Shown here: positions 1,247 to 22,695 of the stretch, piece after piece
How positions within the stretch are numbered: the stretch's first letter is position 1
Layout of the letters: each line of letters opens with the position of its first letter
Source: Salmonella enterica
Lineage (GTDB): Bacteria > Pseudomonadota > Gammaproteobacteria > Enterobacterales > Enterobacteriaceae
Length of the DNA: 24,000 nt
NCBI GenBank assembly: GCA_050507695.1
Contig: CP191473.1
Coordinates: 3,307,888-3,331,887, forward strand
Direction: 5' to 3'
Notes under the pieces: generated by a model
Told to the model about the DNA's origin: nothing
Seen by the model: the letters and a program-made list of their open reading frames with translations, nothing else
Databases searched by the model: none
Position numbers and translations under genes: made by a program

Positions 1247-2470
1247 ATGTTCTCTTTTGTCGCCCGCCAGGCGATTTTCGATGTAAATATGAATACTGTC
1301 GGCTACGAGTTGTTGTTCCGGGACAGTATGACCAACCGTTTTCCCGATGTTACGCCGGAATATGCCACCGCACAGATCATTGTCGAACAATTTCTCGGCG
1401 CGCCGCTGGGGCGCCTGAAAGAGTACAGCGCAATCTTTGTCAATTTTCCCTATGACCTGCTGGTGCAAGGCATGGCGGAAACGCTGCCGAAGGATCGGGT
1501 TATTGTCGAAATTCTGGAGACCGCCGAACCGACTCCCCTGCTGCTGACTACGGTAAGGCAGCTATCCAACCAAGGTTTTCGCATTGCGCTGGATGATTTC
1601 TCATTAAGCGATAGCTGGGACACCTTTTTATCCCATATCGATATTATTAAATTCGATGTTCGGGTACATACGCCGCAACAGATTGGCGACTATATTCGCG
1701 AGAAAGCGCATCTGTTAACTGAAACGGTGTTCCTTGCCGAGAAGGTGGAAACCCAGCAGGAATTTAGCTGCTTTAAAGATCTCGGCTGTACGCTTTTTCA
1801 GGGACATCTGTTTAGTAAACCTGAGATCCACGCGGCAAATAAATTAATTCAGAACCAGACCATCACCTTAATGCTGATGAAAGAGGTGAATGCCGATTCC
1901 CCCGATTTTGGCAAAATCGAAACGCTGCTGAAACAAGACCTGGCACTCTCTTTTAAACTGATGCGCTATGCACAAAACATCGTTTTCAATGCCAGGGGTA
2001 TCAAAAATTTTCGCAGCCAGTCATTGAAGGACATCATTTTCTATCTGGGTGCCAATGAATTACGCCGTTTTGTGCTGGTCTCTTGCCTGACGTCGGTCAA
2101 TAAAGAAAAGATGAGCGAGATATACCGACAGAGTCTGATTCGGGCAAAGTTTTGCGAGCTAGTCTCTGCACATTCGGTTAGCCGCCACTCCGCAGATGAT
2201 GCGTTTATTGTGGGTCTCTTTTCCCAGTTGGATAAAATATTTGAGATGCCCATGGCGGATCTTATTAGCCAGATTGATGTCTCGGTGAACGTGATGATGG
2301 CGCTACGGGATAAAAAAGGCCCCCTCAACCCCTGGTTACAACTGTTCGAATTATATGAACAACATCAGTGGGAAGAGGTGAGCGCACTCGGACATCGGCT
2401 GGGCTTAAATCGTAGCCTGGTGGCAGATCTGATTAAGATCGCGAGCAAATGGACGGATGATATTCCGTAA
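1247..2470 (+). CDS. EAL domain + HDOD domain protein (putative c-di-GMP phosphodiesterase or effector)
   Basis: 407-aa ORF with GGAG 8 nt upstream of the ATG. EAL-domain landmarks are present: YELLFRD, VNFP, EILE, ALDDF, KFD, AEKVE and QGHLFSKP. The C-terminal about 200 aa (LMLMKEV...LSFKLMRYAQN...FIVGLFSQLD) resembles an HDOD domain. Confidence 0.8.
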   Translation: MFSFVARQAIFDVNMNTVGYELLFRDSMTNRFPDVTPEYATAQIIVEQFLGAPLGRLKEYSAIFVNFPYDLLVQGMAETLPKDRVIVEILETAEPTPLLLTTVRQLSNQGFRIALDDFSLSDSWDTFLSHIDIIKFDVRVHTPQQIGDYIREKAHLLTETVFLAEKVETQQEFSCFKDLGCTLFQGHLFSKPEIHAANKLIQNQTITLMLMKEVNADSPDFGKIETLLKQDLALSFKLMRYAQNIVFNARGIKNFRSQSLKDIIFYLGANELRRFVLVSCLTSVNKEKMSEIYRQSLIRAKFCELVSAHSVSRHSADDAFIVGLFSQLDKIFEMPMADLISQIDVSVNVMMALRDKKGPLNPWLQLFELYEQHQWEEVSALGHRLGLNRSLVADLIKIASKWTDDIP

Positions 2471-6765: not shown

Positions 6766-7468
6766 ATCTTATCCTTTCCAGCTAAACATGTTTTCCCAGC
6801 GGTAAAAGACAACTCAATGCTTTGTTGAATTATTAAAAATAATCAATGAATGACTATCTGTCAGATCATTGGGCATGTCGTTGGTGGGATGTGCTATTTA
6901 AAGCAGTAAGTAGCCGGTTTGGCCCGCTTACCCGGATGAGTTAAGAAGTTGTCACGGGCAGCTGAGCAAGCTTCCTCCACAAAATGGTTAAGTTTTTCCT
7001 GTTGCTGTGAATGAGGCGGTGAAAAAAGAAATAAAAACCGAGCATCGTATTGACATTAACGAATGCAACGCCCATTTAGTCGCAAAGAGTCAGCACTCCC
7101 GTACAGGAAGAGTAAAATACTGCAATTTAAAATAAACAACTGTGAACAATATATTTTACAGACCAAAAACAAACGGCTCTTTACAGCAAAGTTGTCGTTT
7201 ACCTGTTAAGGATTCTGCTTAAGCAGTCATTATTGACGCCTTGCCCGAGGGTACTAAAAAATTTCCTTGATAAGAATTATCAAAAAATGTAACGCCATAT
7301 TGCAGCGATTGAACTTCCTGCGATTTACTTCCATCAGATGACCTGCAACTCATAGGGTTGCATATTGGTACATATATTTGATAAAACATGGCACGCTGTA
7401 TTGATCTTTATGTCGTTATCTATAAAAATTAAATGGAAACCTTTATTTCCATGACAAGGAGTGAAGTG

Positions 7469-7873
7469 ATGTCCGAAGCACTTAAAGCATTAAATAACAT
7501 TCGTACCCTACGAGTTCAATCTCGCGAAGTAACTCTTGAAACACTTGAAGAGATGCTTGAAAAGCTCTCTGTCGTTGTTGAAGAGCGTCGCGAAGAAGAA
7601 GCCTCTTTGCGTAAAGAGCAGGAAGAGAAAGAGGCAAAGCTTGCCGCTTTCCGTCAAAAATTATTGGATGAAGGTATCGATCCAACTGAACTTTTATCCT
7701 CTTTAAAAGGACAAGCGCCTAAATCAAAATCAGGCCGTGCCCCTCGTCCTGCCAAATATAAGTATGTGGATGAAGATGGCAGCGAAAAAACCTGGACTGG
7801 CCAGGGTCGTACGCCAAAAGCAATCGCCAGGGCACTTGAAGAAGGTAAAAAACTGGAAGATTTTGCCATCTAA
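7469..7873 (+). CDS. H-NS family nucleoid-associated protein (H-NS/StpA/Hfp-like paralogue)
   Basis: 134 aa from the ATG at 7469, with AAGGAG 7 nt upstream. [15 protein letters not shown]...[20 protein letters not shown]...[26 protein letters not shown] matches the H-NS dimerisation region and the [12 protein letters not shown]-binding motif. Confidence 0.9.
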
Positions 7874-7880
7874 AAATAGA

Positions 7881-7908
7881 GGGGCAGGCCATACACTGCC
7901 CCTGCTTT
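7881..7908 (+). terminator. Intrinsic terminator of the hns-like gene
   Basis: GGGGCAG (7881-7887) / CTGCCCC (7896-7902) form a stem with an 8-nt loop, followed by tgctttca. Confidence 0.55.
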
Positions 7909-7910
7909 CA

Positions 7911-8697
7911 ATGGCTGAAAATTTAGCGCAAATGGGCGCATCCCCTGTCAGTCTAATCAACTTGCATGGTAATCCAGTTATCTATAAGCAGAACGTAACA
8001 GACGTTGAGCTGAATTTTTATCGCCATGCCGCTGAACCACTTAGCGCAGAAGGGCTACATCTCCCCCCGCCTCATTGGATTAGACATCCCCCGCCAGCAA
8101 CTACTGCTGGAATATATTCCGTTACCCGTTTCACAAGACGAGCTTGGCAGCAGCGATACCATTGTTAATTTATTATCCATTATTCACAAACATCTCCCAG
8201 CCGCACATTATCACTTCAAAAGCCATTGCTGGCGCGAAGATCGTCTCGCAGAGGTCTATCATTTATTAGATTTTTCTAACCAACAGATCGCTATTTTTGA
8301 AAAGCTGAGAACGACCAGTGACATTCTGTTTGCGCCATCCTGCATAATTTCAGGGGACAGCAATGCCGGAAACTGGGGCCGGCGGAGCAATGGTGAGGCT
8401 GTTTTATTTGACTGGGAGCGTTTCGGACAGGGCTCTCCTGCAATTGACCTTGCTCCCTTGATTAAAGGTATGGGCACCACACGTGATTATATCCAGCTGG
8501 CCGAAAGGTATACTCAGATAAACAAGCACTATACGATAAAGCAGCTCAGCCGTGAAATCATGCTCAGCAAGGCCTGGATAGTAACAGAAGTAGTGACGTT
8601 ACTCACTGCAAGGAATAACCGACACCTCTGTGCTTATATTGCGTGGTATAAAGCTCATTTACCGGACTGGTTATCCCATATCCACCAACTGATTTAG
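7911..8697 (+). pseudogene. Aminoglycoside/choline-kinase-fold phosphotransferase family gene, apparently frameshifted near 8052-8068
   Basis: The N-lobe (MAENLAQMG...VIYKQNV..ELNFYRHAAEPLSAEG) reads in the 7737 frame. The rest (ISPRLIGLD...LLLEYIP...ISGDSNAGNW...FDWERFGQGSPAIDLA) reads in the 8026 frame. The span is 787 nt (3n+1), consistent with one extra base near the GGG run (8052-8054) or the C6 run (8063-8068). Confidence 0.6.
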
Positions 8698-8726
8698 TTC
8701 TCTTTAAGCGACGAGACAGCACAGTG

Positions 8727-9707
8727 TTAAAGCGACAGTGCTATCACTGCATCGCCGGAGTGCAAATATTTTTTAGCGTATATGGGTAACGTTTGACAGC
8801 CTCTGCTATTCGTAACGATAACAGGTATTGCTGTATCATATCCAGCCAGTTTGACATTCGCCAGATCGAATGTCAGCAGCAACTCTCCTTTTTTGACGGC
8901 ATCCCCCTCCTTGACCTTCATCTGAAAATATCGACCATCGAGCTGAACGGTATTAATTCCTACATGAATTAAGATGCTGGTTCCAGCTTCTGAGATAATG
9001 CCAATGGCATGACCGCTGGCAAAAGTACTGACAATATGCCCATCTACCGGTGAATATATTCGTCCTTCATCTGGTAAAATGGCAAAACCTGGCCCAACAA
9101 TGCCTGTCGAAAAAACATTATCATCAACATCCATAAGCGGGATTAATGTTCCGGTAGCCGGCGCAGCAATCTGCTCAGGTGGAATGAAGGCTTTCTTTGG
9201 CATTGTTGATTTGAGAGCCAACTCGTTGTTATCCCCTGGTGTGGGCACAGTATGAGCCTTCAGTATGAACGGTTCATCAAATCCAGCAATCAATGCCAGA
9301 ACCAGGCTGCCAATAAATGCGAAGGTACAGCCAAGAGTAAAACCAATGAAAATTTCGCCAAAGAAGATAGGCAGCGCCAGAACTCCGTACATCACCAGCG
9401 TAATTACTGCACGTTTCGTCTTTGAATAGGACATCTGTACATGCGTGGTTAACCCTGTATTGTCTTCGTTCAACGTAGTCAACGCAGCGAAAATTTCCGC
9501 TACACGATCTCCAGGCACTACCTGTAAAACGCCTGCATGGTTAAAAACGGCAATCACCCCATCCAGCGCTTTTAGCCTTGTCAGATTAACTTTTTGATTG
9601 TCAATAATGTCGAAGCGTAGCCGTGTTGCACAGTGCTGTAATGCTGCGACATTGTGTTTTCCCCCCAGCAGCTTAAAAATATCCTCTGCCAGCGCTTTAT
9701 CATTCAT
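8727..9707 (-). CDS. PTS glucose/beta-glucoside-family protein with EIIB and EIIA domains joined by about two TM helices; no EIIC domain
   Basis: The N-terminus LLGGKHNVAALQHCATRLRF carries the EIIB Cys motif. The middle segment VITLVMYGVLALPIFFGEIFIGFTLGCTFAFIGSLVLALIAG is hydrophobic. The C-terminus DNVFSTGIVGPGFAILP...GHAIGI...ILIHVGINTVQLDG is EIIA-Glc type with both His residues. At 326 aa it is far shorter than the about 625-aa BglF. Confidence 0.8.
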   Translation of the reverse strand: MNDKALAEDIFKLLGGKHNVAALQHCATRLRFDIIDNQKVNLTRLKALDGVIAVFNHAGVLQVVPGDRVAEIFAALTTLNEDNTGLTTHVQMSYSKTKRAVITLVMYGVLALPIFFGEIFIGFTLGCTFAFIGSLVLALIAGFDEPFILKAHTVPTPGDNNELALKSTMPKKAFIPPEQIAAPATGTLIPLMDVDDNVFSTGIVGPGFAILPDEGRIYSPVDGHIVSTFASGHAIGIISEAGTSILIHVGINTVQLDGRYFQMKVKEGDAVKKGELLLTFDLANVKLAGYDTAIPVIVTNSRGCQTLPIYAKKYLHSGDAVIALSL

Positions 9708-9764
9708 TGTGATAACGTCCGAAAATATCTTTTAAGACACTCGCGCCAGTCACTTATCATCTGT

Positions 9765-10592
9765 TTAGCCACGCAACCGATTAATATGGATAGTCAAAAA
9801 CATTATTTCATCCGTGGTTAACTGACATTGATAATTTTTAACCACATAGTCGTCGATTTTCACTGCGCAAGAGTATGCGCGTGGCATTAACTGGATAATT
9901 CCTTGATAGATGCTGTCGTCACCCTGGGTAATTACTTTTCGATTGAGTAAACGCAGGGCGAAAAATTTCAGATGGGTAATGAAACGCTGATAATCCAAAG
10001 ACTCTTCGTTAAAAGTGATATGAAGATCATATTTGAGGATCGTTAATACATCTTTAATTATCGTAGCACTCTGCATAATAGTATGCATATCACTATTGTT
10101 TTTGGCGTTTGCCAGATGCAGGGCGATAAATCCGGCCTCATCCTCGGGCAAACTGATATTGAGCTTTCTTTTAATTAACGCCAACGCTTCCAGACCGACG
10201 GCAAACTCTTGCGCATAGAAACGCTTTATATCCCAGAGCAAAAAATTTTTTATTACCAGACCATTTAGTTGACGCTGCAGAGCAAAATTAATATGGTCAC
10301 TCAAGGCCAAAAAGAGCGTATCTTGCACGGTTATGGCCAGTCGCTGCTGCGCCAGGGCAATAATTTGCTGCGTAACAGCTAAATAGGGAGCGGGTATTTC
10401 TGCCAAAAGCTGTGCTAAAACATCAGCCAGCCCTTCGCTTTTTTTAACAAATGTGCTCTCAATCTGGCTATCATCAATTCTGTCACCTGTTTTTTTACCA
10501 AAACCGATCCCCCGCCCAATTGCCACGATCTCTTCTTGCTTCGCGGTCGTAAGCAGGACAGCGTTATTGCTGAGTATTTTTTCTACTTTCAT
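9765..10592 (-). CDS. BglG/LicT/SacY-family transcription antiterminator (CAT domain + two PRDs)
   Basis: 275 aa. MKVEKILSNNAVLL......IVAIGRGIGFGKK.GD.ID is the CAT RNA-binding domain, and PRD His contexts are present (FIALHLANA, MFLTIHINR). GAAGG lies upstream of the ATG. Confidence 0.9.
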   Translation of the reverse strand: MKVEKILSNNAVLLTTAKQEEIVAIGRGIGFGKKTGDRIDDSQIESTFVKKSEGLADVLAQLLAEIPAPYLAVTQQIIALAQQRLAITVQDTLFLALSDHINFALQRQLNGLVIKNFLLWDIKRFYAQEFAVGLEALALIKRKLNISLPEDEAGFIALHLANAKNNSDMHTIMQSATIIKDVLTILKYDLHITFNEESLDYQRFITHLKFFALRLLNRKVITQGDDSIYQGIIQLMPRAYSCAVKIDDYVVKNYQCQLTTDEIMFLTIHINRLRG

Positions 10593-10691
10593 TTCAGCCT
10601 TCTCGCCCTGTGTCCCTTGCCCCAGGTTCTGAAATTCACATACATCAGCGATTACAGAACGTCATCCCACAGATCCATCTTCAGAAAAGAT

Positions 10692-10747
10692 GTAAAAAAA
10701 AACCCGATTCCATTAAATCAGCAAGCGCTTTTTAATAGAATCAGGTT
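10692..10747 (-). terminator. Strong intrinsic terminator in the leader of the antiterminator gene
   Basis: On the minus strand AACCTGATTCTATTAAA pairs with TTTAATGGAATCGGGTT, a 17-bp stem with two G.U pairs and a 13-nt loop. A T9 run follows. It lies about 100 nt upstream of the ATG at 10592. Confidence 0.75.
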
Positions 10748-10775
10748 TCGCTCAGTCCTTTCCTGATGACGTCCC
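10741..10775 (-). promoter_or_regulatory. RAT-like (ribonucleic antiterminator) element overlapping the 5' arm of the terminator
   Basis: The minus strand reads GGGACGTCATCAGGAAAGGACTGAGCGAAACCTGA. Its 3' part GCGAAACCTGA matches the bgl/sac RAT 3' consensus GCAAAACCTGA at 10 of 11 positions and shares AACCTGA with the terminator stem. Confidence 0.55.
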
Positions 10776-10883
10776 TTTATAACTCTTATATCTAATCAAT
10801 CACCATTGCTCAACCCCTCAGGATTAGAAATGTGATGATTATCATAACAGCCACATAATGTTTGGTATATAAAGCCCCCTTTT

Positions 10884-11291
10884 TCACTCAAAAAATAATG
10901 GGCAGCTGCGGTCGATTGATTGACACTCCCCAGAATAAAGCAGGCATTGTTTACAAGTCTGTACCAACGCCCATCCCTGAACAAGGGTTAATAATGGCCC
11001 GGTATTAAACTCTGGCAAACAATCATCAATATAAAGATAATAAGCATCAATCACCCGCTTAATGTCATTTAACTCGTTCTTTTCTCTCAATAATTGCCAG
11101 ATGGTACAAAAGTAACGAGCGTGTAATCTGTTCTGCTTATCCAAAAACCACTCGTTGGTAAATGGATACACTTTTCTTTTATTGTTTGCTGTTTTTCCTT
11201 GTTCAGCAATGAGCTGCACGCGAGCATCATTACTCACCAGGAATAGTGCCAACGAAATTTTTTGCATTTCAACATATAGATAATTATTCAT
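10884..11291 (-). CDS. FlhC-family transcriptional regulator-like protein, probably frameshifted (C-terminal continuation in the 10796..10984 frame)
   Basis: YPFTNEWFLDKQNRLHARYFCTIWQLL...VIDAYYLYIDDC...GPLLTLVQGWALV parallels E. coli FlhC [27 protein letters not shown]...VIKAYRLYLEQC...GPLLALTRAWTLV. The stop falls right after the T6-A5-G5 homopolymer cluster. The adjacent frame supplies ...LCGC.... Confidence 0.6.
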   Translation of the reverse strand: MNNYLYVEMQKISLALFLVSNDARVQLIAEQGKTANNKRKVYPFTNEWFLDKQNRLHARYFCTIWQLLREKNELNDIKRVIDAYYLYIDDCLPEFNTGPLLTLVQGWALVQTCKQCLLYSGECQSIDRSCPLFFE

Positions 11292-11449
11292 TATAACAGA
11301 GATAAAAAGACATTAACTATTTAAGGTTATTTAGTTAATCATACATATTAAATATAACTTTTCCAGACATATTTCACTTCACTTAAAAAAATTATATAAC
11401 TCACAAAAAAACATATGCCATGTTAGTCTTAATGACTTCTTAATAAACA

Positions 11450-11467
11450 GATAAATGATCATTTATC
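11450..11467. promoter_or_regulatory. Perfect 18-bp palindrome GATAAATGATCATTTATC in an AT-rich intergenic region
   Basis: Exact dyad symmetry, read directly. Each arm, GATAAAT, resembles the H-NS high-affinity motif TCGATAAATT. The whole element loosely resembles a Fur box. It lies about 160 bp upstream of the FlhC-like start. Confidence 0.35.
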
Positions 11468-11584
11468 AGACAACTATTGATGCAAAAAACAGCAACAGTA
11501 AAAACCAGCATAAATATTATTTAAAGTAGCAGTTTAAACTATATCATTACTACATCACATATTCGTTGTTGCACAGAAAATTTA

Positions 11585-11992
11585 TTATTTAAAATAGCCG
11601 AGCTCCTTACAAACTTTAATCGCCGCAAAGACCCCCGCATCATCACTATTAAACGCGATAACTTGTGCGTGGATATGATTATTTTTATTCATCAGCATAA
11701 CCAGAAAAGGTGTAAAACCGGCATACGCACCATAGGAATTTTTCCCATTAACATAGCCGCAATATTCGCCTTTACCATTTGCAATATATTTCGAATGCCG
11801 AAATTCCGCACTAGCGGGGTCTTTTAGTTTTTCTTTTATAGACTTTTCTATTGCTGCTTGTTCATCAAAAGAGAGGACGCGCCACTGCGCTGGCTGCATC
11901 GGGGTTATTGCCATATCTGATTGTTTATGGGATGCAGCCAAAACCGGTCCCGCCATCAACAGTACAGCCAGAACGATAAATATCTTTTTCAT
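11585..11992 (-). CDS. Hypothetical secreted protein with a signal peptide
   Basis: 135-aa ORF. MKKIFIVLAVLLMAGPVLAAS is a typical Sec signal ending in an AxA-like cleavage site. No family was recognised. AT-rich spacers of about 300 bp and 250 bp flank it. Confidence 0.6.
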   Translation of the reverse strand: MKKIFIVLAVLLMAGPVLAASHKQSDMAITPMQPAQWRVLSFDEQAAIEKSIKEKLKDPASAEFRHSKYIANGKGEYCGYVNGKNSYGAYAGFTPFLVMLMNKNNHIHAQVIAFNSDDAGVFAAIKVCKELGYFK

Positions 11993-12180
11993 ATCCTTGT
12001 CTCATTATCCATTTATACTGCTGAGGCAATAGTAACAGGTATTTATTTTAGAAAAAACGTATAAACAAAATAATTTAACTTATACAAAATATGAATGTTT
12101 TAATTAAAAAATATAAAAACAAATAGTTCAACATTCACTGAGTGGATATTGAGTTACTTTTGAATAAAAATATATGAAGT

Positions 12181-12238
12181 AAAAAATTAACCCTCCAGGA
12201 TTGAATAATACACTTCATTTTATTGTTCAACGCTGGAG
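12181..12238 (-). terminator. Probable intrinsic terminator of the phospholipid operon
   Basis: On the minus strand CTCCAG...CTGGAG form the outer stem with inner AT pairing (AATAA/TTATT). GGTTAATTTTTT follows. Confidence 0.5.
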
Positions 12239-12247
12239 CAGGATCGT

Positions 12248-12394
12248 CTACGGGGTCAGTGCAGAATGCAATAACAGTTTGACCTTAACGACCGCAGAAG
12301 CCAGCATCATCCCCAGAATTTTAGGGGCATAGTCATGGATCCAGGTAGAGACCAGTTCATCGACAATGTGCTGCAGACGCCCGTCCTGACTCAT
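12248..12394 (-). CDS. 48-codon ORF translationally coupled to the acyltransferase gene (hypothetical small protein)
   Basis: Hand-translated as MSQDGRLQHIVDELVSTWIHDYAPKILGMMLASAVVKVKLLLHSALTP. Its ATG overlaps the upstream TGA (ATGA at 12391-12394). It is below the 60-aa cutoff of the ORF track. Confidence 0.35.
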   Translation of the reverse strand: MSQDGRLQHIVDELVSTWIHDYAPKILGMMLASAVVKVKLLLHSALTP

Positions 12395-13023
12395 GTAACT
12401 TTCCTTGTCGCCTGCTGTTGTAATGTGACGAAACGAGTGAGTAACGATTGCTTAAAGGTGACTTTGTCCGCGTCATAAAACAGCGGTTCGTCGATAAATA
12501 TGTCGATAAAAAACGGCACGGGGATTTTCTGCCCTTTGCCCATGGAACGGTCCAGGCCGTGCATATAGACAGGAATAATCGGCACCTCCGGGCACTGCAG
12601 GCTCAAATGCCAGATGCCGGATTTGATCTCTGAAAATTTCCCCGGCTCACCGCGCGTGCCTTCGGGAAAAATAATCACAATTTTCTTTGCTGCCAGCGCA
12701 TCGGCGCAGGCCTGTAACGGATTTGCCTGATAGGCTCCGCGATAAACAGGAATGATGCCGATGACCTTCAGGGCGAACCAGCTAATCACTTTGTTTCGCA
12801 GGAAATAGTCTGCCGCCGCCACGGGCTGCACATTCACCAGAGTTGAAAGTGGAAACAGCGTGAACAGCGTCAGCACATCCAGATGGCTGTTGTGGTTCGC
12901 GACGATAATAGCCGGGCCTTCCACTGGCAGCTTTTTGCGGCCGGACACACGAACGCCCAGCCAAATCCAGACCACGGGGTACGCGATGCACAGCATAAAG
13001 ATCCAGCGCAGAAAACGGTTCAT
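12391..13023 (-). CDS. 1-acyl-sn-glycerol-3-phosphate (lysophospholipid) acyltransferase, PlsC family
   Basis: 210 aa with an N-terminal TM. The acyltransferase motifs NHNSHLD (HX4D) and IFPEGTRG are present. The start lies 9 nt after the upstream stop. Confidence 0.85.
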   Translation of the reverse strand: MNRFLRWIFMLCIAYPVVWIWLGVRVSGRKKLPVEGPAIIVANHNSHLDVLTLFTLFPLSTLVNVQPVAAADYFLRNKVISWFALKVIGIIPVYRGAYQANPLQACADALAAKKIVIIFPEGTRGEPGKFSEIKSGIWHLSLQCPEVPIIPVYMHGLDRSMGKGQKIPVPFFIDIFIDEPLFYDADKVTFKQSLLTRFVTLQQQATRKVT

Positions 13024-13032
13024 CTGCGCCCC

Positions 13033-13962
13033 TTATATATAGAAGTAGTAATAGAAGTGGAAAAACAGTGGCGCGGTGTAAATCAGCGAATCCAGACGGT
13101 CAAGAATACCGCCGTGCCCCGGCAGTAGTTTCCCGGAGTCTTTCACGCCAAAATCTCGTTTGATTGCCGACATCACCACATCGCCACAGAACCCGCTCAG
13201 GCCGATAATCACCCCAGCTTCCAGCGAATGTTTCCAGTTCATCGGCGTCAGAAGCGGACCGAAAATAGCCGCCAGCAGCGTGGTGGTCAGCACACCCCCC
13301 AGCAATCCGGCCAGCGTTTTATTCGGGCTGACCTTCGGCGTGACCTTAATTTTGCCCAGCGATTTCCCCCACAGATATTGGGAAATATCGTTAAGCTCGG
13401 TGGTCGCCACCAGGAATATCACCAGCAGTGCACCTGCTTTGATATCCACGCCTGGTAGCATCATCAGGAATGCGACATGGCTTAAAGCAAAGACCGTAGT
13501 CATCATGCCCCAGTGCATGACGGATGCAGAGTGTAAAAAACCTTTTGTATCGCCAACGAGCACCATGCGGGCGGGCAGGAATAAAAAGACGTAAATCGGG
13601 ATGAAGATAATAAACATGCCGTACCACGCCATCCCCACCCAGATATATTGCAGCGGGATAGCGGCGTACATCCACAGCAATGGCACGCTGTCGGAGCGGC
13701 GAGTCGGCGCCAGCGTCAGATATTCCTTCAGTGACAGGAAGCTGAGAAATCCGAAGAAGGTAAGTGCCAGCCCTTTGGGTGAAAGCATCGCCAGCGAAAA
13801 TAAGCCAACGATAACCCACCAGCTATTGATCCGTTGCTGCAGCTCAAGCCAGTCACGCTGCGGGCGGAACTTTTTTAGAACGAAGATGATAACGGTCGCC
13901 AGCACTAAAACGCTGAAGATCCCGCTGAGGCAGTAATACAAAGTGCGCAGAGAATCAGGCAT
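13033..13962 (-). CDS. Phosphatidate cytidylyltransferase (CDP-diglyceride synthase), CdsA/YnbB-like
   Basis: The C-terminal signature SAIKRDFGVKDSGKLLPGHGGILDRLDS is present in a polytopic protein. I prefer the ATG at 13962, which has GGAGG 7 nt upstream and overlaps the upstream gene end by 8 nt, over the track start at 14049. Confidence 0.85.
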   Translation of the reverse strand: MPDSLRTLYYCLSGIFSVLVLATVIIFVLKKFRPQRDWLELQQRINSWWVIVGLFSLAMLSPKGLALTFFGFLSFLSLKEYLTLAPTRRSDSVPLLWMYAAIPLQYIWVGMAWYGMFIIFIPIYVFLFLPARMVLVGDTKGFLHSASVMHWGMMTTVFALSHVAFLMMLPGVDIKAGALLVIFLVATTELNDISQYLWGKSLGKIKVTPKVSPNKTLAGLLGGVLTTTLLAAIFGPLLTPMNWKHSLEAGVIIGLSGFCGDVVMSAIKRDFGVKDSGKLLPGHGGILDRLDSLIYTAPLFFHFYYYFYI

Positions 13963-14557
13963 TCTTGACCTCCAGCGCGCTACGGCAGCGGTTGATTGAG
14001 GTCCAGGCCAACGGCCCTGCCAAAGCACCAAAGACGATATTGGCAACAATGGGGTATTGCGGCCAAAGCGCGATAAAAAAACCTAAAGCCCCCAGAACAA
14101 AGGCACGGTCACTTTTGCCCATCGGGCCACGATAATTTCGGCTACCCGTCAGCGTCTGGGCGATGACGCCGCAAAACTCTGTCAGCCACGACAGTAGTAC
14201 CACCAGCACAACCAGCCACGGAGAAACTCCGGTCAAAAAAGCAAACGCGAGATAGAGCGCGGCATCAGCGATAATGTCGCCGACCTCATTGAGAATCGCT
14301 CCAGGCACGGATTGCTGGTTAAACTCCCGCGCTAACATGCCGTCGATAGCATTCAGCGCCATACGGAACAATAAGAAGACCGGAAGTGAGATAAAAAACA
14401 GAGGATTCGGGAAACACATCAGCACGCCGCCGAGCAGAACCGAGGCCAGCATTGCCAATAGTGTTACCTGGTTTGCCGTCGCCCCCATGACATGCAGTCT
14501 GACGACGGTGGGTCGAAGTAAATTCTGAAACTGAGGTTTGATATCATACAACGTCAC
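13955..14557 (-). CDS. CDP-alcohol phosphatidyltransferase family protein (YnbA-like)
   Basis: 200 aa with a GTG start and AGGAG upstream. It carries the motif DGMLAREFNQQSVPGAILNEVGDIIAD (DGx2ARx8Gx3Dx3D). The N-terminus MTLYDIKPQFQNLLRP resembles E. coli YnbA as I recall it. Confidence 0.85.
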   Translation of the reverse strand: MTLYDIKPQFQNLLRPTVVRLHVMGATANQVTLLAMLASVLLGGVLMCFPNPLFFISLPVFLLFRMALNAIDGMLAREFNQQSVPGAILNEVGDIIADAALYLAFAFLTGVSPWLVVLVVLLSWLTEFCGVIAQTLTGSRNYRGPMGKSDRAFVLGALGFFIALWPQYPIVANIVFGALAGPLAWTSINRCRSALEVKNA

Positions 14558-15394: not shown

Positions 15395-15614
15395 TGTAGA
15401 TTCAATTGGTCAACGCAACAGTCATGTGAAAACATCTGGTTGCGAAAAATTTTTGGATGAGACGGAAATTTACAGCAAAGGAAAAAGCATTTGTTTTTGA
15501 ACTGTGGAAGAACGGAACAAGCTTCAGTGAGATAGCTAATATCCTGGTTCGAAATCAGGAACTATCTTCCCTATGTTAAGAGATACTGGCAGAATAAATC
15601 CCAATGAACGCGAG
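15395..15614 (+). mobile_element. IS30-family remnant: left terminal inverted repeat plus a frameshifted, 3'-truncated transposase N-terminus
   Basis: TGTAGATTCAATTGGTCAACGCAACAG at 15395 matches the IS30 IRL as I recall it. The ATG at 15457 gives MRRKFTAKEKAFVFELWKNGTSFSEIANIL, against IS30 MRRTFTAEEKASVFELWKNGTGFSEIANILGSKPGTIFTMLRD. After a 1-nt shift the reading continues GSKSGTIFPMLRDTGRINPNER and then homology stops. Confidence 0.75.
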
Positions 15615-15632: not shown

Positions 15633-15709
15633 TGGTACGCCCTGTAGGATTCGAACCTACGACCTACGGCTTAGAAGGCCGTTGCTCTATCCAACTGAGC
15701 TAAGGGCGC
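15633..15709 (-). tRNA. argU: tRNA-Arg (anticodon UCU)
   Basis: The reverse complement GCGCCCTTAGCTCAGTTGGATAGAGCAACGGCCTTCTAAGCCGTAGGTCGTAGGTTCGAATCCTACAGGGCGTACCA folds as a cloverleaf. The anticodon loop is CU-UCU-AA, CCA is encoded, and the sequence is close to E. coli argU. Confidence 0.95.
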
Positions 15710-17284: not shown

Positions 17285-18784
17285 ATGAGCCTGATATCAG
17301 GGTTTGTTAAGGCACTATCGAAGTTATCCATGATTGGCCGCGCACTAATGTTGCCGATCTCACTGTTACCTGCCGCAGGTTTATTACTGGCCTTCGGTGA
17401 TAAATTTCACCTGCCTTTGATGATGAATGCAGGTGGCGTTATTTTTGATAATTTACCGCTGCTCTTTGCTATCGGCTCTGCCGTAGGACTAGCATCAGAG
17501 TCCGGAATTGCTGCCTTATCTGCAGCCGTTTCAGTATTTATAACCAATATCACTATCGGCACGGTATTAAATATCACCCCGGAAATGGCTTCCCAGGGTG
17601 GAAAATATGCAATGGTAGTGGGTATTCCAACACTACAGATGGGCGTGTTTGGTGGCCTGATTTGCGGGATCCTTGCCGCCTGGTGCTACAACCGCTTTCA
17701 CACCATGCAATTACCTGAATTCCTCGGTTTCTTCTCCGGCAAGCGTTTTGTCGCCATCGCCACCGCATTTTTATCGTTTATCCTCGGCCTGTTATTGCCA
17801 TATGTCTGGCAACATATTCAGGCGGGTATTGACGCACTATCCATTATTGTCAACGGCGATAATCAGGCGGCATCGACCTTTATTTTTGGCCTGGTAGAAC
17901 GCGCCTTGATCCCGCTTGGCCTGCACCATATCTGGTATCCCTCATTCTGGTACTCCTTTGGCGATTACACTACTCAGGCCGGGCTGGTCATTCATGGCGA
18001 TCAAACTATTTGGTTCAAAATGCTGGAAGAGGGAACCAAATCCTTTAGCAGTGATACTTACCAAAATGCCGGTAAATTTATGCAGGGTGAGTTCCCACTG
18101 ATGCTATTTGCACTTCCAGCCGCCTGTCTGGCGATGTATCACGAAGCGCAGACTAAAAATAAAAAAATCGCCTCCGGTATTCTCTTTTCAGCCGCGCTGA
18201 CCTGCTTCCTGACCGGGATTACTGAGCCGGTAGAATTTACCTTTATTTTTGTGGCCCCCATCCTCTATGTCTTTAATGCCATCATGGCTGGCCTGGCATA
18301 TATGACGATGTACCTGCTCCATGCGCACATTGCAAAATCCTTTTCAGCCGGGCTGATTGACTATATTTCGTTTGGCATTCTGCCGTCTTTTAATGGTTAC
18401 CAGACCAATTTTCTTAATGCGGTGATCATTGGTATTCCGATGGCGCTTATTTACTACTTCACCTTCCGCTTTGTCATCCGTCGTTTTGATATCAAAACAC
18501 CCGGTCGAACCGACGTTACCGCAACAGCGAACGATAAAACGGATAACGAAATTGCCACTGAGATTATTACCTTGCTGGGCGGTGCGCAGAATATTGATTC
18601 CGTCGGTTCATGCATTACCCGCCTGCGTCTGGAAGTGGCCAAAAGCGAGATGGTAGACAAAGACGGACTCAATAGCGTCGGCGCACGTGGCGTCGTTTTT
18701 GTCGGGGATACCGGTATCCAGGTTATTTTTGGCGCCAGAGCACAATTTATCGCGCAGAGCATGTCCACAATGATCGGTAAATAA
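17285..18784 (+). CDS. PTS glucose-family EIICB component (PtsG/MalX/NagE-like)
   Basis: 499 aa. The EIIC core (LIPLGLHHIWYPSFW, GITEPVEFTFIFVAPILY) parallels PtsG. The C-terminal EIIB carries LLGGAQNIDSVGSCITRLRL. There is no EIIA domain. Confidence 0.9.
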   Translation: MSLISGFVKALSKLSMIGRALMLPISLLPAAGLLLAFGDKFHLPLMMNAGGVIFDNLPLLFAIGSAVGLASESGIAALSAAVSVFITNITIGTVLNITPEMASQGGKYAMVVGIPTLQMGVFGGLICGILAAWCYNRFHTMQLPEFLGFFSGKRFVAIATAFLSFILGLLLPYVWQHIQAGIDALSIIVNGDNQAASTFIFGLVERALIPLGLHHIWYPSFWYSFGDYTTQAGLVIHGDQTIWFKMLEEGTKSFSSDTYQNAGKFMQGEFPLMLFALPAACLAMYHEAQTKNKKIASGILFSAALTCFLTGITEPVEFTFIFVAPILYVFNAIMAGLAYMTMYLLHAHIAKSFSAGLIDYISFGILPSFNGYQTNFLNAVIIGIPMALIYYFTFRFVIRRFDIKTPGRTDVTATANDKTDNEIATEIITLLGGAQNIDSVGSCITRLRLEVAKSEMVDKDGLNSVGARGVVFVGDTGIQVIFGARAQFIAQSMSTMIGK

Positions 18785-18857: not shown

Positions 18858-19874
18858 TTGAAGAAAGTTAGCATTATTGATGTCGCAAAACAGGCTGGTG
18901 TATCAGTATCAACCGTCTCATTGGTATTACGCCAGAAAGGGAAAATCTCGGATGCGACAATCGAAAAAGTACATGCAGCGATAGCAGCACTCGGCTATGT
19001 GCATAATATCGCCGCTGCCAACCTGCGTGCCAATACCTCGAATCTAATCGGTCTGATCCTGCGGGATTTCAGCGATAGTTTTTCAATCAAAGTCATGACC
19101 AGTATTGTGCAGGAGCTGGAACAGCAAGGGTACATGGTATTTCTCAGCCAGCCTCTTAACGATGGGGAACGACTTGAGCGTTGCCTTCTTTCTTTCAAGC
19201 AACAGGGAGTCGCAGGAGTTATCTATCTGGCATCAGATTCACGCACCTCAAGACTCCCGGCTCAAATCCGCCAGTGCCCTCTTCCTCTGGTTGTAGTCTC
19301 TCAGTCATTGCTGGAGGAGGAGTGTGACCTGGTCATGCGTGATAATCGTCAGGCCGCCAGCCTGGCGACGCGGTATTTGATTGAACGTGGACACCGTAAT
19401 ATCGCCTATGTTGGCGGGGCAGAAGATGACTTAATTCGCTATCAGCGATTGCTGGGTTTTCGTTCTGTAATGACGCAACATGGCCTGCTTTTACGCGAGG
19501 AGATGACGCCTGCCAGTAGTGACGGTACGCAGGCTGCGGGTTTCGCCACCCGGCAATTGCTGGAGAAAAACAACACCATTACCGCTCTGCTATGTCACTC
19601 GCCCGATGCATTGATCGGCTCAATTGCTGGCATTCATCAGACCGGGCGTACGGTAGGGAAAGATGTCTTTCTGACACAGCAGGTGGCACTGATTGGTTTT
19701 GAGGATATGCTACACGTTAATCTCACCTCCCCGGCAGTCACCTATGTCTCTTCAGCGAGTGAAGAAACTGGACGACAGGCCGCAGGGCTGATTATCCGTA
19801 AGATAAAAGAACCCGAGCGACAAACGCAGCGCATCACGCTTTCCGGGCAATTAATTGTCCGTGAGTCGGCATGA
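18858..19874 (+). CDS. LacI-family transcriptional repressor (MalI-like)
   Basis: 338 aa with a TTG start and GGGAG upstream. The N-terminal HTH IIDVAKQAGVSVSTVSLVLRQKGKIS..T..KV..AI..LGYV.N resembles MalI, followed by a periplasmic-binding-protein-type sugar-binding core. Confidence 0.9.
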   Translation: MKKVSIIDVAKQAGVSVSTVSLVLRQKGKISDATIEKVHAAIAALGYVHNIAAANLRANTSNLIGLILRDFSDSFSIKVMTSIVQELEQQGYMVFLSQPLNDGERLERCLLSFKQQGVAGVIYLASDSRTSRLPAQIRQCPLPLVVVSQSLLEEECDLVMRDNRQAASLATRYLIERGHRNIAYVGGAEDDLIRYQRLLGFRSVMTQHGLLLREEMTPASSDGTQAAGFATRQLLEKNNTITALLCHSPDALIGSIAGIHQTGRTVGKDVFLTQQVALIGFEDMLHVNLTSPAVTYVSSASEETGRQAAGLIIRKIKEPERQTQRITLSGQLIVRESA

Positions 19875-21972: not shown

Positions 21973-22695
21973 GTGACAACACTCTTTATTGCAGATCTGC
22001 ATCTGCAAATAGAAGAACCGGCGATCACCGCCGGTTTTCTGCGTTTTTTAACCAACGAAGCACGCAAGGCAGATGCGCTTTATATCCTGGGCGATCTATT
22101 TGAAACCTGGATCGGCGATGATGATCCTAATCCTCTGCATCAACAAGTTGCTCAGGCCATCAAAGCCCTGAGTGAAAGTGGCGTTCCTTGCTATTTCATT
22201 CATGGCAATCGTGATTTTCTGCTCGGTCAGCATTTTGCACGCCAGAGCGGTATGACATTACTACCACAAGAGCAAGTACTCGATCTCTATGGCCGCAAGG
22301 TGCTAATTATGCATGGCGATACGCTCTGCACCGATGACGCCGGTTATCAGGCCTTTCGGGCTAAAGTGCACCAGCCCTGGCTACAGAAACTTTTCCTCGC
22401 CCTGCCCCTGTTTATTCGACGTCGTATCGCCGCTAAAATGCGTGCCGGAAGTCGCACCGCGAACAGCAGTAAGTCACTGAAAATCATGGATGTAAACCAA
22501 CAGGCTGTCGTCGAGACAATGGAAAAATATCAGGTGCAATGGTTGATTCATGGTCATACACACCGCCCGGCAGTGCATGAGTTCGAAGCGAATAACGCCG
22601 TCGCTTACCGCGTCGTATTGGGCGCATGGCATAGTGAAGGCTCGTTAATCAGCGTCACAAAAGAAGAAGTTAAACTCCTCTCATTCTCTTTATAA
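21973..22695 (+). CDS. lpxH: UDP-2,3-diacylglucosamine diphosphatase
   Basis: 240 aa with a GTG start 1 nt after the ppiB stop codon. TLFIADLHL...[16 protein letters not shown]...GNRDFL...HGHTHRP matches E. coli LpxH. Confidence 0.95.

Follow-up and report, generated by a model that had tools for sequence, protein, structure and literature searches.

In a 24-kb stretch of contig CP191473.1 (called the window below), deposited at NCBI under the label Salmonella enterica (locus tags ACQYRI_, NCBI protein XTZ37374.1), an antiterminator gene of the licT/bglG type is followed by a gene for a 326-aa protein which carries the EIIB and EIIA domains of a BglF-type enzyme II (EII) of the phosphotransferase system (PTS) without the EIIC transporter domain. 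The two products are named LicT and EIIBA in the following. The reading preferred here, with a probability of about 0.55, is that EIIBA is a transport-less, probably membrane-tethered EIIA-to-EIIB phosphorelay, which phosphorylates the adjacent LicT and has been kept by selection. The evidence favours continued selection on EIIB, EIIA and the membrane anchor after transport was lost, because only synonymous differences (six against none) separate the gene in two strains, the EIIB and EIIA profile fits lie above the neutral expectation, the catalytic residues are kept, and LicT and its leader are normally constrained. A first-pass annotation of the same DNA had described this pair of genes and proposed a transport-less phosphorelay serving the antiterminator; both open reading frames (ORFs) were confirmed (Table 1), and the retention of EIIB and EIIA under selection agrees with the proposal, while the control of the antiterminator is taken from the BglF/BglG paradigm.

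Domain organization of EIIBA

EIIBA matched PF00367 (EIIB) at residues 9-41 with 49 bits and PF00358 (EIIA_1) at residues 179-302 with 157 bits. The scan of the 326-aa protein with PF02378, the model of the EIIC domain with its about 10 transmembrane (TM) segments, gave no match, so the central region did not score as the complete EIIC which the first-pass annotation had named as the outcome that would speak against it. The motifs HCATRLRF, GHAIGI and IHVGINTV, which had been read as intact phosphorylation sites, were all found, and His233 and His248 aligned to His75 and His90 of E. coli IIA-Glc. The beta-glucoside EIIABC model TIGR01995 matched EIIBA in two pieces, residues 100-323 to profile positions 401-616 and, when the N-terminal segment was scanned alone, residues 5-80 to positions 3-78. 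The whole protein reached 269.5 bits with this model (cutoff 614.7) and 222.4 with NF007335 (cutoff 894), below the score of a permease in both cases. The EIIA-Glc domain model TIGR00830 gave 138.6, above its cutoff of 97.5, and the Crr equivalog NF006962 gave 102, below its cutoff of 212; a Crr-type EIIA is a soluble single domain of about 169 aa, to which EIIBA adds EIIB and a hydrophobic segment. EIIBA descends from the BglF family; by its scores and its missing EIIC it is to be filed neither as a permease nor as a Crr-type EIIA. The NCBI name, 'glucose PTS transporter subunit IIA', conceals this origin and the likely role of the protein.

For the membrane region about two TM helices had been proposed. 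Hydropathy gave one continuous hydrophobic block at residues ~100-143 (Kyte-Doolittle means >1.6), broken only by E120 and preceded by KTKR. In an AlphaFold2 model built from a 44-sequence alignment, EIIB and EIIA were predicted with confidence scores (pLDDT) >90, while the membrane region held one confident helix, 112-141, with pLDDT <50 for residues 88-109. Two TM helices are plausible but not settled by this model.

The antiterminator and its leader

LicT matched the CAT domain model CAT_RBD (PF03123) at residues 1-53 with 69.4 bits, PF00874 (PRD) in two stretches, and the NCBIfam LicT equivalog NF046042 with 337.5 bits, above its cutoff of 300. The CAT domain matched the LicT and SacY CAT structures 1L1C and 1AUU, and residues 58-272 aligned with the PRD structures of B. 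subtilis LicT (1TLV). All four regulatory His were present, the motifs DHINFA, ALHLAN, THLKFF and TIHINR aligning to His100, His159, His207 and His269 of 1TLV. By these matches the ORF is a regular member of the BglG/SacY/LicT family, for which PTS-controlled antitermination is predicted.

Orthologues of LicT with 73-86% identity were found in Kosakonia, Klebsiella sp., Pantoea, Erwinia, Brenneria and Pectobacterium. To the Kosakonia proteins LicT was 84-86% identical, with a non-synonymous distance (dN) of 0.095-0.117, and the Kosakonia proteins were 84-88% identical to each other (dN 0.07-0.105), which gives a dN of ~1x the value among Kosakonia and no acceleration of rate. Six Tajima relative-rate comparisons gave counts between 9 vs 13 and 22 vs 11, with p = 0.34-0.72 in four of them and p = 0.019 and 0.056 in the remaining two, for which Pantoea was the outgroup.

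The leader of licT contained, in this order, a CRP-like half-site, a -10 candidate (TATAAG), a ribonucleic antiterminator (RAT) and an overlapping terminator, and this leader was conserved in eight relatives. When the leader was aligned with those of the eight relatives (Kosakonia, Klebsiella sp., Pantoea and Enterobacter sp.), the block ATGATAATCATCACA was invariant or nearly so; it may be assigned to CRP from its TCACA half-site. The hexamer TATAAG is a candidate -10 element by its position. The portion CTGAGCGAAACCTGATT of the RAT was invariant in 9/9 leaders, and the 3' end of the RAT overlapped the 5' arm of the terminator, which had a minimum free energy of -30.1 kcal/mol (z = -4.9) and was equalled by none of 200 shuffled sequences. 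The hairpin arms differed across species with their pairing maintained, and RAT and terminator showed zero differences between the two strains. The licT leader held the sole full RAT match within the window. Rfam gave no match within 7000-12500.

The 57-nt spacer between licT and the EIIBA gene had no RAT/terminator pair; therefore the two genes probably form a single transcription unit behind the licT leader. The sole RAT-like stretch in the spacer, GGACGTTATCAC (9709-9720), equals the 5' half of the RAT with one mismatch. As a RAT half it is ambiguous, for MAFFT places the same bases on the Shine-Dalgarno region of Kosakonia bglF, and no conclusion was drawn from it.

Origin of EIIBA from a full-length permease

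In every one of the related loci EIIBA matched best to a full-length EIIBCA (623-640 aa). Its first ~83 residues matched the N-terminus of the orthologues, and residues 98-326 matched from residue 401 on with 52-61% identity; the hydrophobic remnant thus aligns to Kosakonia BglF from residue 401, and PF02378 lies at residues 112-389 of the Kosakonia orthologue. About 314 EIIC residues (orthologue residues ~87-400) are missing and are replaced by 18 unassignable residues. An alignment with BglF had been suggested for mapping the deletion junction, and mapping at the nucleotide level failed: the junction peptide (80-97) and its DNA had no similarity above shuffled controls to any full-length bglF frame, so the breakpoints near orthologue residues 87 and 400 are only approximate.

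The full-length bglF genes of Kosakonia, Pantoea and Klebsiella sp. were syntenic with the EIIBA gene (flhC-like, licT, bglF, hns). In Kosakonia the order is flhC-like gene, licT, RAT/terminator, a GH1 phospho-beta-glucosidase gene, a CRP site with RAT and terminator, bglF, a LamB-type porin gene and hns, so that bglF has a leader of its own. An FlhC-like homologue with 35-42% identity stood upstream of licT in five related loci, four of Kosakonia (L002-L005) and one of Enterobacter sp. EA-1 (L022). The H-NS paralogue downstream fell into the same 90% identity cluster as Kosakonia H-NS-family proteins, and such a paralogue also adjoins the bgl-type locus of K. oryzendophytica (L003, 12666-12822). 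No GH1 gene, LamB-type porin gene or bgl-type EIIC remnant was detectable anywhere in the window, which bears out the earlier observation that the operon has no phospho-beta-glucosidase. Best match and synteny on both flanks mark the EIIBA gene as derived from a normal EIIBCA bglF by an internal in-frame deletion, and not as a designed architecture.

The porin-gene position is occupied in the window by an APH/thiamine-kinase-like ORF. Compared with the second strain described below (L001), it carries a 1-nt indel at 8063 and is frameshifted here, with 223 aa instead of 277 aa; three non-synonymous and two synonymous differences were counted between the strains, and the ORF is probably decaying.

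Age of the deletion and selection on EIIBA

An independent assembly from the Sequence Read Archive (Logan SRR22859383, L001) was 99.0% identical to the window over 14.3 kb and encoded an identical 326-aa EIIBA, so the truncation is not an assembly artefact and predates the split of the two strains. The EIIC deletion is not recent and not strain-specific. A recent in-frame deletion had been given as the alternative explanation in the first-pass annotation. Its in-frame deletion part stands, with full-length syntenic orthologues in relatives, yet the loss is common to two strains ~1% apart, which also disposes of a clean strain-specific event; this sharing and the large excess of lineage-specific substitutions make the deletion old.

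Since pairwise dS to Kosakonia was saturated, classical dN/dS could not be used on the deep branch, and dN, relative-rate comparisons and profile-fit simulations were used instead. On common columns EIIBA was 58-61% identical to the Kosakonia orthologues, which were 78-82% identical to each other, and it evolved 5-10x faster than the orthologues, an acceleration without parallel in LicT. Tajima relative-rate counts on EIIBA columns gave 48-60 changes unique to the window vs 5-16 (p = 1e-7 to 1e-9). Against the baseline among Kosakonia, dN was raised ~7x in EIIB (0.31-0.34 to Kosakonia, 0.02-0.07 among Kosakonia), ~6x in the TM remnant and ~2x in EIIA. Of the 178 columns invariant in 11 full-length homologues, 47 were changed in EIIBA (0-10 in leave-one-out controls), and the C-terminal tail was strongly diverged, with 25-38% identity to the orthologues. 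By these comparisons a change of selective regime took place long ago in EIIBA, with no such change in LicT.

Between the two strains the EIIBA gene had six synonymous and no non-synonymous differences, all six being transitions. As ~35% of the possible transitions in the gene are synonymous, the 6:0 count has P ~0.002 when transitions only are considered. In the shared region 14 genes together had 53 synonymous and 21 non-synonymous differences.

The fit to profile hidden Markov models built from distant homologues (<=45% identity) was compared with that of neutral simulations having equal amino-acid changes, with stops excluded. EIIB scored 74-75 bits (orthologues 85-95, neutral 34 +/- 10) and EIIA 167.5 bits (orthologues 172-183, neutral 120 +/- 8.5), and in neither case did any of 400 simulations reach the score of the window. 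Generic EIIB models of the sucrose, trehalose and Asc types scored this EIIB about like functional orthologues, while its beta-glucoside-specific score was lower (80 vs 98). The TM remnant gave 31 bits with the EIIC profile (orthologues 60-71, neutral 25 +/- 7), a value reached by 77/400 simulations. Its mean hydropathy had risen to 1.96, compared with 1.59-1.63 in orthologues, which 0.2% of neutral simulations reached, and it had lost one Pro and one Gly. The remnant has lost its EIIC-specific fit at the neutral rate and has become more hydrophobic than in any orthologue, as expected if it now serves as an anchor only. Taken together the results are consistent with two phosphotransfer domains that were retained, a release of the constraint from EIIC contacts, and a residual hydrophobic segment that has become a simple membrane anchor. 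A pseudogene would show dN/dS near 1, loss of profile fit and a broken frame; here the frame was intact in two strains, and the TM remnant alone showed a neutral-like loss, that of EIIC fit.

Proposed mechanism

The phosphotransfer steps, the membrane topology and the regulatory output proposed here are modelled on the BglF/BglG and BglP/LicT paradigm. In that model, as long as sugar is absent, the permease uses its EIIB to phosphorylate the antiterminator and keep it membrane-bound; once sugar is transported, the phosphate is drawn off and the antiterminator, which HPr activates via PRD2, is set free (review PMC12591593). For EIIBA the phosphoryl group would pass from phosphoenolpyruvate through enzyme I and HPr to His248 of EIIA and on to Cys25 of EIIB. 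Without EIIC there would be no sugar acceptor, and phosphorylated EIIB could donate to PRD1 of LicT (His100/His159), keeping LicT inactive, perhaps at the membrane. Phosphorylated LicT would leave the RAT of its own leader unbound, and transcription would end at the terminator. With both genes behind the LicT-controlled leader, a self-limiting loop would result, whose set-point would be the general PTS phosphorylation state instead of the availability of beta-glucosides.

The remnant would in this way be a sugar-blind phosphoryl donor and a tether for LicT. LicT showed no relaxation while its partner evolved fast; therefore it probably still has a target, for which RAT-controlled operons at other sites of the genome are plausible, and the remnant would prevent LicT from being constitutive. 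Loss of the remnant would leave LicT constitutively active, and that alone could explain selection on it. In B. subtilis, EIIA and EIIB domains perform poorly when detached and cytoplasmic, and membrane anchoring restores their activity (PMC6148471), a requirement which the retained anchor of EIIBA would fit.

A stronger form of the proposal, that the remodelled BglF remnant is a dedicated sugar-blind PTS sensor coupling a LicT re-targeted outside beta-glucoside catabolism to the global PTS state, is tentative and rather doubtful. Under it the anchor would have become more hydrophobic, and EIIB would have been freed from its contacts with EIIC, after transport was lost.

Alternative explanations

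Several observations weigh against EIIBA being a maintained phosphorelay for LicT. The locus has lost all catabolic and transport functions, a picture resembling decay, and the Shine-Dalgarno sequence before the EIIBA gene is weak. No LicT target besides its own leader was found within the window, and with a permanently phosphorylating partner the loop looks pointless unless other targets exist. AlphaFold2 gave one confident helix in the membrane region, not two, and a protein that crosses the membrane only once would have its EIIB on one side and its EIIA on the other. Changes of a non-conservative kind (I65P, G57H, Q60V, and V24Q beside the catalytic Cys) have occurred in EIIB. The carriers of EIIBA are two genomes of one lineage, so that the 6:0 count is the sole test within the lineage, and survival of a stop-free ORF is only mildly improbable in a model of neutral substitution (P = 0.05-0.16), which is weak evidence by itself. 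In addition, the readable contexts of three metagenomic EIIB-EIIA ORFs (P0027, P0003 and P0070) were decayed sucrose/trehalose-type loci with LacI-type regulators and no antiterminator.

These points would suit a slowly decaying remnant of a dying bgl-type operon, in which the product of the in-frame deletion has no role and stays open by chance or passively. Such decay would account for the loss of GH1, EIIC and porin, for the 5-10x faster evolution with non-conservative changes at otherwise invariant sites, for the frameshift in the neighbouring kinase-like gene, for the weak Shine-Dalgarno sequence and for the modest improbability of the open frame, and degraded loci elsewhere do still contain comparable B-A ORFs, one of which occurs on 17 contigs. 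It is nevertheless considered unlikely, for it does not explain the 6:0 ratio, the EIIB and EIIA fits that no simulation reached, or the retention of the catalytic Cys and both His. Neutral change would also erode the hydrophobicity of the anchor, which rose instead. EIIBA has no frameshift, though neutral divergence of the implied size would be expected to bring indels, and neither LicT nor the leader is relaxed.

Less probable still is that the selected function is that of a membrane-tethered EIIA-Glc, alone or with EIIB, which serves other permeases as a donor or docking partner and not primarily LicT. Enterobacteria normally carry Crr, which speaks against the need for such a donor. EIIA is the best-conserved part of the protein (dN ~2x against 6-7x in EIIB and the TM remnant; 167.5 bits against 172-183), and selection on a C-terminal EIIA would also hold the upstream frame open; yet EIIB itself is clearly constrained, which an EIIA-only role leaves unexplained, and the tight 57-nt linkage to licT behind one RAT/terminator has been kept. 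Membrane-bound EIIA-Glc-type domains of B. subtilis (PtsG, GamP, YpqE) complement EIIA-less permeases (PMC6148471), and earlier work cited there reported E. coli BglF as a substitute for EIIA-Glc with PtsG and ScrA. An EIICB without EIIA at 17285-18784, 7.6 kb away, had been pointed out as a possible partner. The gene is real, but at 90% identity its product clusters with sequences from Enterobacter, Kluyvera and others, 4500 in all, while EIIBA is a singleton; as this EIICB is common in genera without EIIBA, a specific partnership was rejected.

BglF is the textbook transporter doubling as the sensor for its own antiterminator, and the two functions have been separated only with engineered constructs. 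If the phosphorelay reading is true, a natural and long-kept EIIC-less derivative would show that the regulatory half can persist alone, and it would offer a ready-made system for asking whether an antiterminator with a sugar-blind partner senses the PTS state or permease cross-talk, or is simply restrained where it would otherwise be constitutive. Even with an inert remnant, the locus would document the stepwise decay of a bgl-type operon in good resolution.

Other EIIB-EIIA proteins

An exhaustive HMMER search of 1.84 billion cluster representatives gave many short EIIB-EIIA proteins without PF02378, including soluble B-A fusions of ~250 aa. The first-pass annotation had suggested a search for the same B-TM-A architecture beside bglG homologues; similar ORFs do exist, but their readable contexts were without an antiterminator. 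The metagenomic ORFs P0027, P0070, P0003, P0220, P0263 and P0305 had the same domain content as EIIBA and were only 27-44% identical to it; in some of them B and A were separated by one or two hydrophobic segments. ORFs of this kind (L035 6001-6855, L041 5001-6068 and L040 5001-5762) stood beside fragmentary alpha-amylase, hydrolase or LacI genes, and one EIIC-less ORF was present on 17 contigs. P0004 (L039 1452-3377, Phytophthora cactorum, 323 aa) was discarded as a gene-model artefact, since the model spans 1926 nt and its 'intron' removed EIIC from an evident bacterial contaminant bglF. As the inspected examples were unrelated remnants or artefacts, a conserved family of EIIBA regulators including the EIIBA gene was rejected. 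In-frame loss of EIIC may be a recurrent route of decay or repurposing of Glc-family PTS genes.

Source lineage and genomic context

The Salmonella label is doubtful because the core protein LpxH (21973-22695) and many neighbours, the ORFs at 18858-19874 and 9765-10592 among them, were singletons and the H-NS paralogue clustered with Kosakonia. At 90% identity among ~15 billion proteins LpxH, the MalI-like repressor, LicT, EIIBA and several neighbours were singletons, the next LicT being 86% identical. The source genome is probably a mislabelled, unsampled species of Enterobacteriaceae. In a barely sampled lineage the rarity of EIIBA reflects the rarity of the lineage, therefore, and not a strain-specific accident. 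The metagenome scan gave no closer relatives by which the deletion could be dated, and the genome-contig scan gave no genome of the same species.

The orphan FlhC-like gene (135 aa) stood directly upstream of the licT leader with no adjacent flhD. The H-NS paralogue is not the canonical hns and merits mention beside a bgl-type locus, since the classic case of silencing by H-NS is the bgl operon of E. coli. A tRNA-Arg(TCT) gene lies at 15633-15709 (-), and the homology of L001 ends at 15602, ~30 nt from the 3' end of the tRNA; beyond this breakpoint the L001 contig carries an AlpA-type HTH_17 gene and a glycosyltransferase gene, which suggests a strain-specific island integrated at tRNA-Arg(TCT). 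At 12391-14557 (-) a three-gene cluster of lipid type encodes a lysophospholipid acyltransferase, a CdsA-like protein and a CDP-alcohol phosphatidyltransferase (archaetidylinositol/PIP synthase-like); its AT skew is unusually high, with values up to 0.29, the two strains have more non-synonymous differences here than in the neighbouring genes, and its products were singletons at 90% identity. The protein at 1247-2470 (+), named by NCBI as EAL plus HDOD, was also a singleton at 90% identity, with a partial and weak EAL match (residues 77-200).

Table 1. Coordinates of the features of the licT-EIIBA locus in the window
Feature	Position	Strand	Basis
H-NS paralogue, downstream synteny anchor	7469-7873	+	H-NS domains
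APH/thiamine-kinase-like ORF, in Kosakonia porin-gene position	8026-8697	+	weak PF01636 and TIGR02721 matches
EIIBA ORF, 326 aa	8727-9707	-	ORF list; starts 57 nt downstream of licT
C-terminal tail, codons 303-326, and stop	8727-8801	-	ORF end
EIIA-Glc domain, codons 179-302, His233 and His248	8802-9173	-	PF00358
Flexible linker, codons 147-178	9174-9269	-	poorly conserved in all homologues; pLDDT <50, residues 146-166
Hydrophobic remnant, codons 98-146, putative two-helix membrane anchor	9270-9416	-	homology to last EIIC hydrophobic segments
Junction peptide, codons 80-97, NEDNTGLTTHVQMSYSKT, in place of ~314 EIIC residues	9417-9470	-	
EIIB domain, codons 1-79, active-site Cys25 in HCATRLRF	9471-9707	-	PF00367
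licT-EIIBA spacer, 57 nt, weak Shine-Dalgarno	9708-9764	-	sequence
licT/bglG-type antiterminator (CAT, PRD1, PRD2), 275 aa	9765-10592	-	ORF list, Pfam and NCBIfam
Intrinsic terminator: long hairpin 10700-10748, U9 tract 10691-10699	10691-10748	-	folding
RAT, GGACGTCATCAGG...CTGAGCGAAACC	10744-10774	-	leader alignment
Candidate -10 hexamer TATAAG	10785-10790	-	TTATAAG or TTATAAC in 9/9 leaders
CRP-like half-palindrome ATGATAATCATCACA, licT promoter region	10831-10845	-	leader alignment
Orphan FlhC-like gene, upstream synteny anchor	10884-11291	-	PF05280

Comparison with known systems

In a literature search of incomplete coverage, no paper was found to describe a natural BglF-type protein that lacks EIIC and partners an antiterminator. 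The locus resembles E. coli BglG-BglF and B. subtilis LicT-BglP in its CAT-PRD1-PRD2 antiterminator with four regulatory His, in the leader RAT overlapping a terminator, in a partner with BglF-type EIIB (Cys) and EIIA-Glc (two His) in B...A order, in the CRP-like site and in an AT-rich location beside an hns-family gene. Unlike in those systems, EIIBA has no EIIC, so that sugar binding, transport and sugar-dependent dephosphorylation are not possible; no phospho-beta-glucosidase is encoded in the operon, and only one RAT/terminator is present, the EIIBA gene having no further copy in front of it. The full-length bglF genes of Kosakonia, Klebsiella sp., Pantoea and Erwinia (623-640 aa) share with the EIIBA gene the position between flhC-like/licT and hns, the active-site motifs and 58-61% identity over the EIIB, last-TM and EIIA columns. 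The EIIBA gene differs from them in having no promoter, RAT or terminator of its own and in the absence of GH1 and porin genes.

The PTS-Ntr (EI-Ntr, NPr and EIIA-Ntr) is a permease-free PTS branch with regulation only, and thus a conceptual analogue of EIIBA as a transport-less regulatory branch. Unlike EIIBA it uses a different EIIA family, has no EIIB and no antiterminator partner, and is ancient and widespread instead of lineage-specific. BglG phosphorylation is reportedly independent of the sugar-translocating function of BglF, and Chen and Amster-Choder reportedly used BglF IIB/IIA constructs in which EIIB and EIIA were detached from EIIC. In B. subtilis, engineered TkmA-anchored EIIA/EIIB likewise have their domains apart from EIIC, and a heterologous or minimal TM anchor restores activity (PMC6148471). 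Those detached domains are laboratory constructs, whereas the EIIBA gene occurs in nature and shows signs of having been retained over a long time.

EII proteins that mainly control an antiterminator of the BglG family are known, as in the beta-glucoside sensor locus bvrABC of Listeria. B. subtilis SacX is a low-activity EIIBC 'sensor' which negatively controls the antiterminator SacY, and in SacX-SacY, as proposed here, the EII protein mainly serves this control and not catabolism (PMC12591593). The SacX and bvr sensors keep EIIC and respond to a specific sugar, which EIIBA cannot bind. By analogy, the function of EIIBA would be closest to that of the regulatory half of BglF/BglP and of sensor-type EII proteins such as SacX.

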